A stretch of DNA of 52,348 bases from Desulfosporosinus sp. UBA5188 (GTDB taxonomy: Bacteria > Bacillota > Desulfitobacteriia > Desulfitobacteriales > Desulfitobacteriaceae). This document shows, in pieces, positions 10,565-18,281 of the stretch. The notes beneath the pieces were generated by a model that saw only the letters and a list, made by a program, of their open reading frames with translations, was not told where the DNA came from and did no database searches. Made by a program: the position numbers and the translations under genes. Position 1 is the first letter of the stretch. Each line of letters starts with the position of its first letter. The stretch lies in contig DHWG01000069.1 of assembly GCA_002413075.1 (NCBI GenBank), positions 2,119 through 54,466 of the forward strand. Reading direction: 5' to 3'.

Positions 10565-11282
10565 TATTTTCCCTCCCCAACAAATCTTTTTTGACGAGTA
10601 ATAAACTGAGATAATCAATTTTTTCAGAGGTGAAATCCTGAGGTTTAGGTTCCCATCGGATTTTCTCACCAACTTGTCCCAGGCGGGTTAACAAGACTGC
10701 TTTTCTCCCACGTTCTTCGAGGTGCGTCAAAATCTCAGGTAGTCTTCGAGAGACTTTCATTAAGACTAAATTGGGGAAGTCGAGGAACTCTCCAACATCT
10801 TCAGTACTTGGCAAAATCAGGAGGGGCTCATCTCCTGTGGCAAGAGGCAAGTTAATTCTAGCTGCCGCTGCAGACATAGCCGTAATCCCAGGAACAGTTT
10901 CGATACACTCCTGAGGTAGCTCCTCTTGAAGAATGTTCAGAAGATAACTATAGGTACTATACAGAGAAGGATCTCCCAGCGTGATAAAGGCGACGGATTT
11001 TCCCTGTTTCAGTTCAGCTAAGAGAGTTTGTGCCCCAGTTTGCCAAGCCTTAGCTAAAATCTGCTTATCGGCAGTCATGGGCATTTCTAGTTCGATTAGG
11101 CGGACCTTGGAGGGACAATGAATTTTGGCTATGTCCCAGGCGACACTTTCTCGATCAAGCTTGGATTTAGGAATGGCGACAATATCCACCGCTTGTAAAA
11201 CATCGACAGCTTGCAGAGTCAAGAGACGTGGATCACCAGGACCGACCCCTACTCCGTAGAACTTCCCCCATGCTATAGTCAT
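10545..11282 (-). CDS. cbiL: Cobalt-factor II C20-methyltransferase
   Basis: GVGPGDPRLLT, TLGDPSLYSTY, VLMK; start moved to ATG 11282 behind AAGGAG. Confidence 0.93.
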   Translation of the reverse strand: MTIAWGKFYGVGVGPGDPRLLTLQAVDVLQAVDIVAIPKSKLDRESVAWDIAKIHCPSKVRLIELEMPMTADKQILAKAWQTGAQTLLAELKQGKSVAFITLGDPSLYSTYSYLLNILQEELPQECIETVPGITAMSAAAARINLPLATGDEPLLILPSTEDVGEFLDFPNLVLMKVSRRLPEILTHLEERGRKAVLLTRLGQVGEKIRWEPKPQDFTSEKIDYLSLLLVKKDLLGRENSEPEKS

Positions 11283-12511
11283 AACACTTCTCCTTTTCGT
11301 GCCGATATTATAAAGATAGGATTCAACGCTTGTGCCATATGAAGTGTTTGTACGGCTTTCCATCGAACCGCTTGAATAGAAACGGTATCGATATCTTCGA
11401 AATTTAGCTCTGTAAGCAGTTTTAAGCCTTGAGCCACTGTTTCGATCGTAACTGCCGTGATCACAATTCTCCCCCCCTTAACCAGGGGAACGGTTTCCAA
11501 TATCTCTGATAAACGCCCATTACTCCCACCAATAATACACACATCCAGTGAAGGAAGCTTCCCAAAGACATCAGGTGCAGTTCCTGGAATCAGTTGGAGA
11601 TTTTTAACGCAAAACTTGCGTTGATTGGAAAGAATTAGTTCCTGAGCCTCTGAATTATGTTCAATTGCATAAACTAAGCCTTCAGAAGCCAGACCTGCAG
11701 CTTCTATACTAATGCTTCCCGTACCAGCTCCAATATCTACGACGCGATCATATTTTGAAATTTGGGCTTTGGCCAGTACTTGCACACGAATTTCCGCCTT
11801 GGTCATGGGAACCTTTCCCCGCAGAAACTCTTCGTCTGGAATCCCAATTCTGCACCCAGTACTTTGTTTGGTGGATTGCGTGTTACTCTGAATAGTATTT
11901 TGCGGATACAGGATAACAATGGCATTCTTTAACACTGTTTTATCCCGAGCCAAATGCTCTGCATCCATTGTTTCCCAAAATTCCTCTGGATAAGCAAGGG
12001 CATTTCCGATCGATATCTGGGGATTTTTGCCGCGCTTTAAATAGAGTTGCGCGATTTTCTGAGGAGTATTTTCCCCACCGGTTAAAACCGCAGTGAGACA
12101 AGTTATGCTTTCAGGAAGTACGGATAACTCTCGACCATGTACACTAACAAAAGTTGCCTCCTGCCAAGGAATTTCAGCTCTCGCAAAAGCAAATTGAAGA
12201 GAACTGATCCCAGGATAGACGTCCATTCTCTGCTCCGGAAATTCTTTTTTAAGTCGGGGTAAAAAACTGAAAAATCCAGGGTCCCCAGAGACAAGAACCC
12301 CGACAACCTTCTCCTCCACAAGTGCGTTTCTGATCACTGAAATACTGCTGGCTAGATCTCCAGATAGAGTATACTGAAGTCCTGTAAAATCGGGAAAGAG
12401 TTGGAGAGCTCTAGATCCCCCTATTAATATTTCGCAGTTCTTTACAAGTTCAGTAATTGCCGGCGGCAACCATTCCGGTCTGCCAGGACCGATTCCGATC
12501 ACCTGTAACAT
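11279..12511 (-). CDS. cbiET: Fused cobalt-precorrin-7 C5-methyltransferase / 6B C15-methyltransferase-decarboxylase
   Basis: N-domain GIGPG, SGDPGFF, SVHGR; C-domain PMTKAEIR, DIGAGTGSIS, ALNPI; start moved to ATG 12511. Confidence 0.93.
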   Translation of the reverse strand: MLQVIGIGPGRPEWLPPAITELVKNCEILIGGSRALQLFPDFTGLQYTLSGDLASSISVIRNALVEEKVVGVLVSGDPGFFSFLPRLKKEFPEQRMDVYPGISSLQFAFARAEIPWQEATFVSVHGRELSVLPESITCLTAVLTGGENTPQKIAQLYLKRGKNPQISIGNALAYPEEFWETMDAEHLARDKTVLKNAIVILYPQNTIQSNTQSTKQSTGCRIGIPDEEFLRGKVPMTKAEIRVQVLAKAQISKYDRVVDIGAGTGSISIEAAGLASEGLVYAIEHNSEAQELILSNQRKFCVKNLQLIPGTAPDVFGKLPSLDVCIIGGSNGRLSEILETVPLVKGGRIVITAVTIETVAQGLKLLTELNFEDIDTVSIQAVRWKAVQTLHMAQALNPIFIISARKGEVL

Positions 12512-12576
12512 AAATAACCTTCTTCCCTGAATTTTCGTAAGCTTCAAGAAACAACTGTATTCTAATAGTTGGGTAA

Positions 12577-12605
12577 ACAAAAATACGAACCAGAGCGGTT
12601 CGTAT
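12577..12605 (-). terminator. Riboswitch-associated intrinsic terminator (expression platform)
   Basis: Minus strand ATACGAACC-gctct-GGTTCGTAT followed by TTTTG, between riboswitch and cbiET. Confidence 0.75.
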
Positions 12606-12658
12606 GGTTTACCCTAAATAAACACACACATCACCTATTGCCCGTAGGTTTGTGATAT

Positions 12659-12809
12659 TTCTCAAGGCAGGTTTCCTGGCTTCAAATCATCATTCTCTTC
12701 CCGCAGTGACTCTGGGTATAAGAGAACTCCTTGTTTACAGTGGCGGGACCGCGTCGGACGTTCGCCGACTTCCCCTTTTATATCCTCTATCGCAGAGGAA
12801 CCTTGAGAA
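12659..12809 (-). promoter_or_regulatory. Cobalamin riboswitch upstream of cbiET operon
   Basis: Minus strand AAGGTTCC..AAAAGGGGAAGTCGG..GCGGTCCCGCCACTGTAA..GGGAAG..B12 box AAGCCAGGAAACCTGCC; closing stem TTCTCAAGG/CCTTGAGAA. Confidence 0.92.
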
Positions 12810-12982
12810 TCTTTGTATTTAATTAATTTTATGATCATCTATAAACTCATAATCTATTATTTGTGTATTATAACTTAAATCTCTCTTTTTAGAAAGGACT
12901 TTTAGGAATCCGTGCAATATTATATATTTATCGCTTAATTTTGGTTTTCATCTAACTCAAGTAAATGCTCATATTGCCAATC

Positions 12983-13012
12983 AAAAAACAGCACTCAACG
13001 AATGCCGTTTTT
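12983..13012 (-). terminator. Intrinsic terminator after cbiD
   Basis: Minus strand AAAAACGGCATTC-gtt-GAGTGCTG followed by TTTTTT. Confidence 0.75.
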
Positions 13013-13051
13013 GTCATGATTAATAGATTTGCACTCATTACACCATTGTGT

Positions 13052-14191
13052 TTACAATTCTAATTTCGGTTCCACGGACCACACCCAGCCTTGTTCCTCC
13101 ACAATCTTACGAGCTTCCAAATCCCAGCCAACGGGTTGGCCGTTCAATAACGTCATGATTGTTCCAATGCTAAGACTCCCATAAGTGAACGACTGAGCTC
13201 TTTCACTTGCTAGGTATGCTAGGTAATGAAGCAATTTTTGCTCACCAATCAGCAAGAGCTCTTTGGTGGCCCCTTCAGTCGTTGGAAACTCTGCCAGATG
13301 CTTTAATGTGTCTACGTCTACGCCAGCTAATGCAGCATGAGCCAGTAAGATTTCCATTCTGGCATCTGCGACACGATTATGGGTATGGAAAATACCCCCG
13401 GAAATCTTGATAAGCTTTCCTATATGCCCTAATAAAATAACCTGTTTTATCCCGCGATAGGCGGCTTCCTCCAAGAGATAGCCTACAAAGTTACTCATCT
13501 GTATCACGGCCTCGGCCGGGACCATAAAGCGCTCCGTTGCCACTCTATACCCATAGTGTCCTGGGGTGAGTACAATGGTTTTATGCCCATAGGCTACGGC
13601 TTGGTCCAACTCTGGTAGGATGGAGGTTTTAAACGCTTCCTCGGACATCGGCCGAACTATTCCGCTTGTACCAAGGATAGAAATTCCCCCCTTAATCCCC
13701 AATCTGGGATTAAGGGTGCGTAAGGCTGCAGTTTCTCCGTCGGGAACTTCGATGATAATTTCGAGTTCTGCTTTTGGGAAGACCTCCCGAACCGCTTCAA
13801 GGATCATACTCCTTGGTACCGGATTAATGGCACTTTCTCCAACCGAGAGCGCCAATCCTTTTTTGGTCACGGTCCCAACCCCTTGCCCCCCCAGGATGTG
13901 GACCTCTCCTTGTGGGGAAATATAACGCGCAATCGCCTGAATCTCAAGGCCATGCGTAATATCCGCATCATCTCCGCCGTCTTTCAGAATACTTGCCCTA
14001 GCCTCTGGATATCCAGCCTTCCCTCCATGGATTGGCATCGTTAAGCGTGCAGAATTTGGTAGTGTAATCTCTACTTGCACGGCTAAACTGTCCCCTTTAA
14101 GTAGTAGACAGGCAACTTTAGCAGCACCAGCGGCACAACTACCCGTAGTATATCCTTCGCGCCAAGTATGTCGATCTTTATCTCGTGCCAT
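13052..14191 (-). CDS. cbiD: Cobalt-precorrin-5B C1-methyltransferase
   Basis: GYTTGSCAA, KDGGDDADITHG, AINPVP, LGIKGGISILGTSGIVRPMS, GHIGKL. Confidence 0.96.
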   Translation of the reverse strand: MARDKDRHTWREGYTTGSCAAGAAKVACLLLKGDSLAVQVEITLPNSARLTMPIHGGKAGYPEARASILKDGGDDADITHGLEIQAIARYISPQGEVHILGGQGVGTVTKKGLALSVGESAINPVPRSMILEAVREVFPKAELEIIIEVPDGETAALRTLNPRLGIKGGISILGTSGIVRPMSEEAFKTSILPELDQAVAYGHKTIVLTPGHYGYRVATERFMVPAEAVIQMSNFVGYLLEEAAYRGIKQVILLGHIGKLIKISGGIFHTHNRVADARMEILLAHAALAGVDVDTLKHLAEFPTTEGATKELLLIGEQKLLHYLAYLASERAQSFTYGSLSIGTIMTLLNGQPVGWDLEARKIVEEQGWVWSVEPKLEL

Positions 14192-14241
14192 AGTTTCTCT
14201 CCCGTTATCACTTTTATTGAAAGAATTAATCGTTCATAGAA

Positions 14242-14270
14242 AGTATAAATCATGTGGTGCCTTAGTTCAA
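14242..14270 (-). promoter_or_regulatory. Putative sigma-A promoter for cbiD
   Basis: TTGAAC (14270-14265), 17 bp spacer, TATACT (14247-14242). Confidence 0.6.
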
Positions 14271-14301
14271 CTAAAACTGTACAATCTCATATTATGAGGG
14301 A

Positions 14302-15114
14302 TTATAATACCCCTAGGTGCAGTTTGAATCGAACAAAAAACGCCGACGTTAGTAACAGGATAAAGAAAGCTATTGCGCAGGAATCCTTGAAAGAAAATCT
14401 AATTTGACGCATCGATGTCGAAGTTCTCGTCAAGCCGTATCCTCTGTTAAGCATAGCCATTGATAATGAATTAGCCATCAGAATAGAATTGATGAACATA
14501 GGAATCATCAGGGGTAAATGCGATCGAATAGAGCCAATAATCCCCTTATTATTAAATCTTACGCCTCGCGCTTTTTGGGCCTCTATGATTAGTTGGCGTT
14601 TTTTATCCAAGGTCGGAATGAATCGTATTGCCGTTGTCAGCATCATGGTTATCTCAACAGGAACCTTCATCATTTGAAAGAATTGGATAAAATCATCTAT
14701 AGACGTGGTCAAAGTCAACACAGAAGAAGCAATCATCATACTAACAAGGCGAAAGGTAAACGTAGTACCCATTAGAAAGCCACCCACTGTTGCCCCTAAG
14801 CGGTTTCCAGGTAGCACATAAAAAAGAATTGCTTGGTTAGACGCCTGACCAAAACGCTCAGGTGCAAACGTAAATCCTGTGATTAAAATAATCGTTATTA
14901 TGATAGGAATCAAGGGAGCCACCATTCTCCCGATTTTCTGCAGAGATATTTTCATCCAGAAGGCAAGTAATCCGGTCAAAGTTACGATAAAAAGTTGATA
15001 TAAAGGGTCTTGGAATATAAATGAAAGTATAATGAGCCCTAAGAATCCATACATTTTGACTCGTATGTCGAGTCGATGGAGCAAGGTGTCGCCTGGTATA
15101 TACTCTATAGACAT
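14302..15114 (-). CDS. ecfT: ECF transporter transmembrane T component
   Basis: LHRLDIRVK, AIRFIP, AQKARG and NRGY coupling-helix Arg motifs. Confidence 0.92.
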   Translation of the reverse strand: MSIEYIPGDTLLHRLDIRVKMYGFLGLIILSFIFQDPLYQLFIVTLTGLLAFWMKISLQKIGRMVAPLIPIIITIILITGFTFAPERFGQASNQAILFYVLPGNRLGATVGGFLMGTTFTFRLVSMMIASSVLTLTTSIDDFIQFFQMMKVPVEITMMLTTAIRFIPTLDKKRQLIIEAQKARGVRFNNKGIIGSIRSHLPLMIPMFINSILMANSLSMAMLNRGYGLTRTSTSMRQIRFSFKDSCAIAFFILLLTSAFFVRFKLHLGVL

Positions 15115-16982
15115 CCTGGCTTCTCCTCACTTTCGAACATCGCAGTAAACTCACTTGCTTCTATAAAGGTTTCATGCTCTAGAATATCCGTCAATTGTAT
15201 GGAGAGTCCACATAGTTGGGGGGGTAATATGGCAGCGTCGAGAAGAATTTGTTCGTTAGTAAAAACATCTTGAGGTGCACCATCTAACAAAATCTCGCCG
15301 TCTTTCAAGACAATCACCCTCTTAGCATATTGAGCCACTAAATCCATATCATGACTGATCATAATAATTGTGGTTCCTGCAGCGTGTAGTTTGCGAATCA
15401 ATCCCATCATTGTCTGAACGCCTGTCCAGTCTGACCCAGTGGTTGGCTCGTCAATAATAAGCAGTTTGGGCTTTAATACAAGTATTGAAGCGACGGCAAT
15501 CATTTGCCGTTCTCCTTTGCCCAAACTAAACGGATGAACGCTGCGGTATCTTTCTAAGCCAGTATAGTTAAGGACCTGATCGACTCGTTCTTTGATTTCT
15601 TTTCCTTTAAAACCTGCGTTTTTAAGGCCAAATTCGAGTTCTTTTTCGACAGTCGTGGAGAAAATTTGATGATCAGGATTTTGAAAGACGTATCCAATCG
15701 TTTTGGATAAATATGAGGTATCATACTGTAAGGTATTCATGCCCTCAACGATGACCTCTCCACAGGTTGGTTTTAAAAGTCCATTAAAATGTTTCGCTAA
15801 GGTCGTTTTTCCAGCACCGTTTTGCCCAATGAACGCCACGAATTGGCCAACTTCAATCGTCATATTTATCCCTCTCAAAGCAGACTGACCTGGGCTATAC
15901 TGATAAATTAGATCATTCACTTGAACAGCGATTGCTTTCTCAGACCAGTTCATTACCTGCTTCAGAACGTGCTCATCGCCCTGCTCATTCCCTTGCCAAT
16001 GTCCGTATTTGGGTAACAATGTTCGAATCAATTCTACTGCAGATGGGATATCTAATGGGATTTGAGCCAAGGAAATCCACCGCTTTTCATAGAAATACCA
16101 ACCGATTAGGCTGACCGGTATGGGCTTTATTCCAAACTTTCGCAAAAGAAGAATGTTACGAAAGAGTTCACTTGGAACGCCTCTCCAAACCACTTCACCT
16201 TGGTTCAGTACGACGACTTCATCAGCCTTTCTAATCACTTCTTGGCTGGAGTGTTCCACCAATACAATCGTAAGGTCCTTATTCCGTCGCAAATCGTCTA
16301 ACGTTTCATAGATCTCTAATCGTCCCAGCGGATCAAGTTCTGAGGTCGGTTCGTCGAGTACCAAGATACCCGGTTCCATCACGAGAACACCCGCAATCGC
16401 TAAGCGTTGTTTTTCTCCACCAGAGAGTGCCTCCGTTAAGCGTCGATTGTACCCTTTAAGACGAACTTTTTCTAAGGCCTCATTGACTCGTTGTTTAATC
16501 TCGTTGAATGGGACCAAGAAATTGCGGGGACCAAATGCGGTATCTTCCTCAACGGTGCGACCAATAATTTGGGTCTCGGGATCCTGTAGGACAAGTCCGA
16601 TAACCTTGGACATCGACTGGATTGAGGTTCTTCCTACATTCTTCCCAGCGACACACACCTGCCCTGTTAGTTTTCCCTCCAGAAGTTGGGGAATAAGGCC
16701 GTTCAGACATAAGCTCAAGGTCGTTTTACCCGCCCCTGTGGACCCCATTAGGACCATGAATTTCCCTTTTTTCACAGTTAAGCTTACATTTCTCAAGCTT
16801 GGTTCCACTGAGTTCGGATAACGATAGGAGACATTATTGAGATCAATCGCATTTTTATCCAATCGTAAGACTCCCACTTCTTCAAGTGGGAGTGGGCCCC
16901 CGTACTCTGCTTCGGTGGGGGTAGACTCCCCCACCGAAGTCTCGATGTTCAACTTTAGTTGAACGAGTTCACTATGTTCCAC
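15105..16982 (-). CDS. ECF transporter duplicated ATPase (fused A-A'), with a 38-codon insertion at its 5' end; start GTG 16982, alternative TTG 16862
   Basis: Two Walker A (GSTGAGKT, GQNGAGKT), QDPE/QNPD Q-loops, LSGGEKQR and LGKGERQ signatures, two DEPT Walker B. Confidence 0.92.
   Translation of the reverse strand: MEHSELVQLKLNIETSVGESTPTEAEYGGPLPLEEVGVLRLDKNAIDLNNVSYRYPNSVEPSLRNVSLTVKKGKFMVLMGSTGAGKTTLSLCLNGLIPQLLEGKLTGQVCVAGKNVGRTSIQSMSKVIGLVLQDPETQIIGRTVEEDTAFGPRNFLVPFNEIKQRVNEALEKVRLKGYNRRLTEALSGGEKQRLAIAGVLVMEPGILVLDEPTSELDPLGRLEIYETLDDLRRNKDLTIVLVEHSSQEVIRKADEVVVLNQGEVVWRGVPSELFRNILLLRKFGIKPIPVSLIGWYFYEKRWISLAQIPLDIPSAVELIRTLLPKYGHWQGNEQGDEHVLKQVMNWSEKAIAVQVNDLIYQYSPGQSALRGINMTIEVGQFVAFIGQNGAGKTTLAKHFNGLLKPTCGEVIVEGMNTLQYDTSYLSKTIGYVFQNPDHQIFSTTVEKELEFGLKNAGFKGKEIKERVDQVLNYTGLERYRSVHPFSLGKGERQMIAVASILVLKPKLLIIDEPTTGSDWTGVQTMMGLIRKLHAAGTTIIMISHDMDLVAQYAKRVIVLKDGEILLDGAPQDVFTNEQILLDAAILPPQLCGLSIQLTDILEHETFIEASEFTAMFESEEKPGCL
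16859..16972 (+). mobile_element. 114-bp non-autonomous IS200/IS605-type miniature element (PATE-like)
   Basis: Three inverted repeats (16870-16893, 16910-16939, 16947-16964); preceded by TTTAT (16854-16858); ends GTTCAC; AAGA and GATG sit directly 5' of the first and last hairpins; deleting it leaves a normal-length ATPase N-terminus. Confidence 0.75.
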
Positions 16983-16999
16983 GGTTTTCACCTCATAAC

Positions 17000-17515
17000 C
17001 TATATGAGCCGACTGCCCTTAATTGCTTTGTAGGCTACTGCCGAAATAATAACATTGAGAGCTGCTCCTACGACAAGAAAAGGCATTAGACCCAGAACGC
17101 CTCCCATACCCATAATTGGAAGCATAGCGAAGGCGGATACAACCCCATTAAGGATAATTGCAACGATGACTGCAGGAATTAAACCAAGCTTCTCATTAAC
17201 CCAGCGATAGGTCACCGCCCAGATAGCCATTTGTAAAGCAATATACAGATGGATCGGAATGGTCATAGGGAATCCAATCACTGCTGCTGTCAGCAAATGT
17301 CCAAAAGCAATAACGATGGCTCCAGTTAGTCCACCAAAGGCCAGAGCACAGAAAAAGCCAGGTGCTGAATCCATACCAATGGTTCCAACAGGACTTGGGA
17401 TCTTAATGAGGGCTCCGACTGCACTTAGGGCAATAAAAATAGCCATAATAGATAGTCTCTTGACCTTCCAAGCAGAGAGTTTTATGTCCTGTTGTTCTGT
17501 TCCTAGATGATTCAT
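17000..17515 (-). CDS. cblT: ECF S component, alpha-ribazole transporter
   Basis: Hydrophobic 171 aa with AIFIALSAVG, IKIPSPVGTIGMDSAPGF, GHLLTA..GFP; next to cblS under a B12 riboswitch. Confidence 0.82.
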   Translation of the reverse strand: MNHLGTEQQDIKLSAWKVKRLSIMAIFIALSAVGALIKIPSPVGTIGMDSAPGFFCALAFGGLTGAIVIAFGHLLTAAVIGFPMTIPIHLYIALQMAIWAVTYRWVNEKLGLIPAVIVAIILNGVVSAFAMLPIMGMGGVLGLMPFLVVGAALNVIISAVAYKAIKGSRLI

Positions 17516-17528
17516 AGAATATTCCTCC

Positions 17529-18281
17529 TCATATTTTGTACAATTTACCGATCTTTGTTAAAGGTAAATTTGGAAAACAAGAAAACTTCTGATCGAAATC
17601 CGAGAACGATGACGATGAAAAAATCAGACACGTAGACGGGCCAGCTGATTTATCTAAATTAAGAGTACAGCGAGGATCAACTCGCAAACGGGTGTCTACA
17701 GTAGAGGCAAGTTGGTCTGCTTCCCAACGTATTCCTCTTGAACCGACTGGAACTATGTCATGAATACTTGAAATCCCTAAGAGGTTCTGAATCGCTTTCA
17801 CGGGTACAATTTCTGGATCCTCTGGATTGTTAAGCTCAGGGCCTACTTTAGGAAACCCTAAACAATAGATCTCATCTCCCGGTTGAGCCGTTCCTATCCG
17901 TAACTTGTTTTTCTCAGCCACACCAATCACACTGATCCCCAGACCTGTTTGTTGCGTAAGCATGTTTTTTTCCGTGCTGATGGCCATAGGTAGTGTTATT
18001 AATCCAGCTGATTCTAGTTCATCGTTCACCCCCCTTAATAATTCTTCCCCGGTGGGGTACGGCTCATTCGAAATCGCAACGGTCAGCATCTGAGGCACAG
18101 CCCCTGTGGCAAGGACTTCCAACAAAGCAACTCGTGCGGTTAACTTTCCTGTAATGAACCATGAAATCTTGAGCGCATCTAATTCCTTCATACCAATTGC
18201 GCCACAGGAATCGCACGAAGCCACCAAATACTGAGCGTTGTTTATTAAAACGACCTCAACATCCCGACCAAGATATCCCAA
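17529..18281 (-). CDS. cblS: Alpha-ribazole kinase (PurM/AIR synthase-like fold)
   Basis: RD..CDSCGAIGMKELD, ARVALLEVLATGA, STEKN, PKVG, PVGSRGI, KSAGPST. Confidence 0.82.
   Translation of the reverse strand: MGYLGRDVEVVLINNAQYLVASCDSCGAIGMKELDALKISWFITGKLTARVALLEVLATGAVPQMLTVAISNEPYPTGEELLRGVNDELESAGLITLPMAISTEKNMLTQQTGLGISVIGVAEKNKLRIGTAQPGDEIYCLGFPKVGPELNNPEDPEIVPVKAIQNLLGISSIHDIVPVGSRGIRWEADQLASTVDTRLRVDPRCTLNLDKSAGPSTCLIFSSSSFSDFDQKFSCFPNLPLTKIGKLYKI

Follow-up and report, generated by a model that had tools for sequence, protein, structure and literature searches.

We found positions 16859 to 16972 (plus strand) of the window, i.e., the whole 52,348-nucleotide stretch of the Desulfosporosinus sp. 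UBA5188 genome that was analyzed, to be a 114-bp, gene-less element of the IS200/IS605 type. We consider it quite probable that this transposase-less element was inserted as single-stranded DNA by a TnpA acting in trans and was kept by virtue of a length divisible by three (3n) and an open antisense frame. Direct support comes from the repeat family to which it belongs, exact empty alleles, the lack of a target duplication, and compensatory changes in its hairpins, as well as from guide-target covariation, a lagging-template bias, and the confinement of mid-gene copies to the open frame. The interpretation offered by a first-pass annotation of the same DNA was supported overall, with the refinements given below.

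The element was delimited by exact empty alleles and a multi-copy alignment. Its ends, CCAATCG... and ...GTTCAC, form no terminal inverted repeats, and 114 bp is too short for a transposase. In the host DNA, it is preceded by the target pentamer TTTAT (16854 to 16858, plus strand; family consensus TTNAT, from the frequencies in 43 copies of the CCA..GT subfamily and the empty site L209/L133) and followed by a conserved T (16973, plus strand) representing position +1 of the target. This T was seen in the flanks of the copies, where it followed TTCAC in 102/107, 69/69, and 60/61 copies of three copy sets, and it was ruled out as a part of the element by the exact empty sites, which hold the same T. 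The TTTAT target of the first-pass annotation therefore stood but was refined to TTNAT/T (the slash marks the insertion point), with a 5′ flank of TTNAT and a conserved T outside the element. At the left end, the guide tetranucleotide AAGA (16867 to 16870, plus strand; NAGA in the family), whose first base covaries with target position −3, is followed by a subterminal hairpin (16871 to 16892, plus strand) that was identified by folding and shows two-sided changes at 3 of its 9 pairs. The central hairpin (16910 to 16939, plus strand), also identified by folding, takes extra hairpin modules into its loop in longer variants and is missing from short variants. The right guide tetranucleotide GATG (16944 to 16947, plus strand) was assigned from the alignment and an IS608-like geometry for TCAC (PMC5934647), and it was invariant in 27/27 aligned copies, which had largely been gathered with a pattern containing GATG. 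The right subterminal hairpin (16947 to 16964, plus strand; from folding) has a TTTA loop and one pair that is A-T in 13/27 copies and G-C in 13/27, and the right-end cleavage motif TTCAC (16968 to 16972, plus strand), taken from the alignment, equals the TEM of ISGst2 (PMC10055086). The positions of TTTAT, the element, AAGA, GATG, and TTCAC all agreed with those annotated earlier, and the exact empty sites and the element ends bore out the earlier view that neither a target duplication nor terminal inverted repeats are present.

As single-stranded DNA, the element folds into three hairpins (−31.3 kcal/mol; z, −6.65), and 0 of 200 shuffles folded as well. The three stems were kept by compensatory changes in an alignment of 27 sequences (96.8% of cells were paired, and 8 of 28 pairs showed two-sided changes), with 0 of 500 shuffles scoring as high in a control that is inflated by the kinship of the copies. 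A known RNA family or omega-RNA was rejected as an identity, the best Rfam match being RAGATH-23 with an E value of 0.28, far below the gathering score; an Rfam scan of eight long-variant loci gave no match. In the long variants (142 to 864 bp; L390, L398, L460, L464, L168, and L784), the central stem has modular, nested hairpins within its loop, and some forms of 177, 180, and 243 bp remain 3n and stop-free. In one of these loci, a 525-bp variant is immediately preceded by a Moco riboswitch (L168:1565-1696). Short variants of approximately 67 to 84 bp (L125, L142, L776, and contig C168 of the own genome) have lost most or all of the central hairpin and kept the target and both ends, and one of 84 bp resides in frame within TsaE. 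We also saw one copy nested in an older copy, just inside the central hairpin of the latter (L009:1438-1614).

The element is repetitive, as the first-pass annotation had expected, with 22 matches in its own genome; of 41 genomes searched, 27 gave matches, as did 23 of the 24 other genomes of the genus, the genomes examined being mostly drafts or metagenome-assembled genomes. Counts peaked at 143 for left ends (in G019) and at 124 for right ends (in G021), and the exact right end was present in approximately 880 stored GTDB stretches. The left-end pattern occurred in 43 of 112 genomes of the class and the right-end pattern in 10 of 401 of the phylum, indicating a patchy spread. Most of the named records with the element were from Desulfosporosinus, and others were from Acididesulfobacillus, Desulfotruncus, Clostridiales, and Halanaerobiales; the carriers are related soil and groundwater bacteria in which the element is repeated up to a hundred-fold. 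A search of plasmids, phages, and viral contigs for the element gave no match. The element also spawns many spurious short gene calls, and of the 184 database representatives, the best 150 were mostly short open reading frames.

The pairing of guides with targets that the first-pass annotation had taken from IS608 was corroborated at the left end and fits by geometry only at the right end, where GATG matches the cleavage site but does not vary among copies. The first base of the left guide was Watson-Crick complementary to target position −3 in 58/95 copies, against 35.2 ± 3.6 expected (0 of 20,000 permutations), after 13 of 108 copies had been dropped for want of a TNAT at the expected distance; in one subfamily, the count was 29/43 against 13.5 expected. 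The guide bases A, G, T, and C go with the targets TTTAT, TTCAT, TTAAT, and TTGAT, respectively, a natural retargeting among four targets within one family through a single guide base, but the pairing is loose for G, as copies with this guide followed TTGAT 10 times and TTCAT 9 times in a replicate set. In IS608, the corresponding geometry consists of A+16:T−3 and A+17:T−4 pairs plus a preference at target +1 (PMC5934647). G012 is a complete genome whose sequence begins at dnaA and whose GC skew locates the terminus near 2.93 Mb; in it, the top strand of the element lay on the lagging-strand template in 45/66 copies (P = 0.004), and in 44/66 with other terminus positions; the values were 8/12 in G010 and 5/7 in G024 with assumed midpoints. 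A bias toward the lagging-strand template is a known trait of the IS200/IS605 family (PMC7290912). Since the copies are related, the P values given here overstate their independence.

The host gene (15105 to 16982, minus strand), a fused double ECF-transporter ATPase by profile and homologue evidence, codes on the strand opposite to that of the element, and its frame passes through all 114 bp without a stop, which confirms the stop-free host frame noted earlier. The filled allele encodes a 625-aa protein that matches TIGR04520/04521 (fused double ECF ATPase). The ECF substrate-specific (S) component is encoded upstream (17000 to 17515, minus strand; Pfam PF12822) and the ECF T component downstream (14302 to 15114, minus strand; Pfam PF02361). 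This module of S component, double ATPase, and T component sits among cobalamin genes (cbiD and probable cbiE/T) within positions 11279 to 18281 of the window, a neighborhood that suggests that the substrate is corrinoid-related. Upstream is a 250-aa AIR-synthase-like gene. The conserved host start is the GTG at 16982, after GAGGTG, and the element swaps Asn4 for 39 residues. An insertion inside a transporter gene had been annotated correctly, with the refinement that it falls after codon 3, within a leader that is hypervariable across orthologues and outside the folded ATPase.

Orthologues of the host gene were located in 19 of the 24 genomes of the genus. The element was absent from 21/21 other orthologous loci aligned, in which the leader ranged from none to approximately 25 residues, and two of these loci (L024 and L029) were colinear with the element-excised allele. 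The first-pass annotation had predicted that a deletion of the element would leave a normal ATPase and that empty-site orthologues would exist, and such an allele was found: proteins P0057 to P0059 are 587 aa long, begin MEHNKNAIDLNNVSYRY, and show 99.0 to 99.8% identity over 583 residues. Among the 10 members of the 90% cluster of the host protein, 5 were filled and 3 were empty at 99.0 to 99.8% identity (start MEHNKNAIDL), the other two being an empty allele at 97.9% and an unrelated fragment. Four sequencing runs agreed with this, as contigs of X7 and X8, from two studies, joined 16858 directly to 16973 with exactly 114 bases absent, and X4 and X6 contained the filled allele, with X4 bridging both junctions and X6 the left one. 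Positions 16859 to 16972 are thus a polymorphic insertion, with both the filled and the empty allele present in a single species-level cluster. Another exact empty site, TTTAT/T without a target duplication, was found in a different organism (L209 versus L133). In a structure model of the filled protein, residues 1 to 41 had a pLDDT below 50 and the fold began at residue 44, but the insert is missing from 9 of the 10 aligned rows, which makes its low pLDDT weak evidence. Two RNA runs contained other copies of the element and not the host gene, so they have no bearing on its expression.

It is conceivable, though we would not expect it, that the element and the mechanism are as described and the inserted peptide is not made, as translation could restart within the element at GGGAG, an 8-nt spacer, and an in-frame TTG (16860 to 16875, minus strand; TTG at 16862), a putative alternative start that would skip the insert and yield a 585-aa protein, making this copy harmless by restart instead of by read-through. 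The Shine-Dalgarno (SD) sequence and the TTG are in frame with good spacing, gene callers chose four different starts for the filled allele, one database call (P0052) starts at this TTG, and the leader is dispensable and variable in orthologues. However, a 10-bp RNA stem encloses the internal SD, the native GAGGTG-N6-GTG start is still in place, and the copy in L006 has CTG where the TTG is expected; nor can a restart account for the mid-gene copies in CbiA, TsaE, and a UvrD-like helicase. As the internal SD-TTG could bypass the insert in this copy, the added 38-aa peptide of the first-pass annotation was overstated.

Only one of the six frames of the element is commonly open, namely antisense phase 1, which was open in 49 of 101 copies, against at most 5 for each other frame. 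Read in antisense, the target is A/AT NAA, so that an Asn-Lys/Glu/Gln codon pair sets the element in its open frame. In our own gene calls for the own genome, 13.9% of the TTNATT sites belonged to this class and 34.9% were intergenic. With genes called by a custom codon model plus homologues, 11 of the 30 copies that were 3n and stop-free resided in frame within genes in the pooled set, compared with 0 of 100 other copies mid-gene (P = 1.9e-8), an enrichment that the first-pass annotation had anticipated. In G019, we scored 69 complete copies and set aside 27 that were truncated or at an edge; 8/14 open copies resided in frame within genes, and 0/55 closed copies were mid-gene; in G075, G070, G069, G041, and G042 (61 copies scored, 37 skipped), the numbers were 3/16 and 0/45. 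A conservative recount, which drops two weakly supported open cases and adds two closed ones, L443 near a possible start and L395 at 13 codons from the end, gave 9/30 versus 2/100 (P = 2.5e-5). Homologues from the own genome span the insertion junction for L385, L386, L390, L752, L758, and L776.

The hosts are unrelated to one another, and the insertions fall mostly in leaders and linkers. Those in the scored genomes include the linker of another ECF ATPase, a UvrD-like helicase, an HD-domain protein, TsaE, a methylase, and the leader of an aldehyde dehydrogenase. A peptide-based protein search yielded 51 of 65 candidates, and the element peptide was an internal insert in approximately 10 unrelated Pfam-named proteins, often in linkers; they include CbiA, GGDEF-EAL and isochorismatase-carrier linkers, an aminotransferase, RecX, and a PrpR-like activator. 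Miscalled starts probably explain several of the N-terminal occurrences. The copies can be viewed as a natural insertion-scanning library of where proteins accept approximately 38 residues. Any closed copy that touched a gene was at its stop codon, apart from one in a decayed response regulator of the own genome. At many host stop codons (L185, L188, L189, L123, L142, L452, and L474), the target overlaps TAA and the element gives TGA at once. Two organisms carry the element in frame at an identical Ile-Asn-Lys site in the N-terminus of an IS605 tnpB (L614:1-115 and L548:1933); in L548, the remainder of tnpB was then lost.

We propose that a TnpA supplied in trans would paste the element in as single-stranded DNA at the TTTAT/T site three codons into the ECF ATPase gene. 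With its 3n length and one stop-free antisense frame, it would add only a disordered 38-residue extension, presumably translated and compatible with the function of the protein, so that the element would persist. Approximately 14% of the target sites (Asn-Lys/Glu/Gln pairs) would place it in its open frame, and purifying selection on the host would remove other coding insertions.

The open frame and 3n length could instead be an element-level adaptation, a translational stealth kept through compensating indels and internal modules of 63/66 bp, but this seems unlikely to us. It would agree with the open variants of 84, 108, 111, 114, 117, 177, 180, and 243 bp, some of which reached 3n through two separate non-3n changes, and with the in-frame share of open copies, 11/30, which fits near-complete tolerance (28.5% expected; P = 0.32). 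On the other hand, closed copies were the most numerous in G019 (55/69), and a general 3n enrichment was not found, as only 48 of 101 mixed, related copies were 3n. In addition, two complete or near-complete genomes with older copies, G012 (66 copies) and G021 (30 of 124 sampled), had 0/66 and 0/30 copies spanned by a gene, and the favored lagging-template orientation would be the closed one for co-directional genes. None of 66 GTDB loci had a copy spanned by a gene, and only 1 of 11 open copies was clearly intragenic in a metagenome and phylum set. Because closed copies are commoner in G019, the older populations have no intragenic copies, and the latter set gave 1/11, we favor tolerance filtered by host selection, and the open frame looks like a side effect of the hairpin sequences, one that enlarges the range of survivable targets. 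Should lineages nevertheless have been selected for a 3n length and an antisense open frame matching the codon phase of the target, which we doubt, this would be the equivalent of IStron splicing at the protein level; insertion at almost any in-phase coding site would be survivable, and the element would offer a natural, precisely excisable, DNA-guide-retargetable peptide tagging, with 28- to 80-residue loops across the proteome.

It is less likely still that the filled alleles are recent deleterious insertions awaiting purge or assembly artifacts. The inserts hardly differ from intergenic copies, one species-level cluster contains both filled and empty alleles, and old populations have no intragenic copies, all as this would predict; however, the filled allele, found in five cluster members of several origins, already shows a Tyr-to-His change, its junctions were bridged in runs X4 and X6, and equally young out-of-frame copies are missing, so selection had time to act.

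The first-pass annotation had expected a tnpA/tnpB insertion sequence (IS) with the same ends, and none was found; what we saw were IS605s that share the terminal motif and have similar hairpins. A profile search of the own assembly, which is 86% complete, gave no TnpA (PF01797) and no TnpB (PF07282). No IS with these ends was present among 80 tnpA, 43 tnpB, and 4 iscB loci, and no such IS adjoined the element in 532 element-bearing loci scanned with 25 TnpA, 5 TnpB, and 2 IscB proteins, a scan that omits L443 to L502 and L745 to L833. Several candidate parents were rejected: the matches in L548 and L614 are the insertions into tnpB itself, the element in L407 merely adjoins an unrelated tnpB, the Y1 gene in L552 is RAYT-like, and the own IscB element has a different hairpin. 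The latter, an IscB gene (RRXRR, HNH) with a HEARO RNA (L245:814-2354, contig C81), also has a right end of TTCAC followed by T, and a copy of the mini-element lies approximately 230 bp away. The IS605s of the genus end in TTCAC or GTCAC, have TTTAA/CC left junctions, and carry hairpins resembling the left hairpin of the element. Regarding the TnpA that we infer, the co-resident IS605s with the same TTCAC end are, by inference only, the best mobilizer candidates. It is very improbable that the element is instead a REP-like unit spread by a RAYT (TnpA-REP): its high copy number, the GTAG in its central loop, the RAYT-like Y1 genes of most genomes, and a long variant 24 bp after a 260-aa RAYT-like Y1 gene that has its own, different flanking repeats (L552:1465-2520) would suit this, but only 1 of approximately 17 RAYT-like loci had a copy nearby, a single one on one side, and the element has polar left and right ends, a 5′ target, and two guides, with GTAG internal and not terminal.

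IS608 and ISDra2 are 1.7 to 1.8 kb in size and autonomous, whereas the element is gene-less and its left and right hairpins differ in sequence. As in these two, the first guide base pairs with target −3 and a second hairpin lies 3′ of the left palindrome, but the preference at target +1 is C in IS608, G in ISDra2, and T in the element (PMC5934647). Group A IStrons are likewise derived from IS605, insert after TTGAT, ATTAT, or TTTAT, and reside in genes without killing them, but they leave via group I intron splicing (PMC4227781), whereas the element would be read as a peptide; an IStron identity was rejected since neither the element nor its long variants gave an Rfam match above the gathering score, and so no group I intron core. 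Classical MITEs (ERIC, Correia, and RUP) are also small, non-autonomous, and sometimes found as in-frame fusions, and they were rejected as an identity by the lack of terminal inverted repeats and of a target duplication. The palindrome-associated transposable elements (PATEs) defined in Haloquadratum (PMC3119063) and the PATE-like ISGst minis of Geobacillus (PMC10055086) share with the element the lack of a transposase, terminal inverted repeats, and target duplication, as well as near-terminal palindromes and a short 5′ targeting sequence; the TTTAT target and TTCAC end are ISGst2 motifs, and TTCAT is an ISGst5 motif (PMC10055086). Apart from a parent with shared ends, every testable PATE feature was present. 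Unlike PATEs and the ISGst minis, one family here has four target variants with matching guides, its parent IS was not found in the loci searched, and it frequently resides in frame in genes, which the available portions of PMC3119063 and PMC10055086 do not mention. PATEs and in-frame palindromes (Rickettsia palindromic elements [RPEs] and REPs) are each already known, and we found no description of this element family or of in-frame PATEs in the open-access literature. RPEs and intragenic GTAG/CGTC REPs are likewise palindromic repeats of approximately 100 to 150 bp that lie in frame in unrelated genes, often in termini or linkers, but polar IS605-type ends and guide-target pairing are not described in the available parts of these sources, where the mobilizer is hypothetical (PMC10969869, PMC3733652, PMC3184786). 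The RPE likeness stated in the first-pass annotation lies in this shared in-frame behavior; the claim of a different transposon class was weakened, as RPE-4 and RPE-6 are classed among the REP-type repeats and RAYTs of the IS200/IS605 family have been put forward as the movers of REPs (PMC3733652). PATEs and REPs have been grouped together as Y1-moved minis (PMC4810608). The origin of RPE-type inserts has been hypothetical so far, and the element ties this phenomenon, in which selfish palindromes are read as peptides, to a solved, assayable transposition mechanism whose mobilization and tolerance are directly testable, as the boundaries, target, guides, and empty alleles are all defined.
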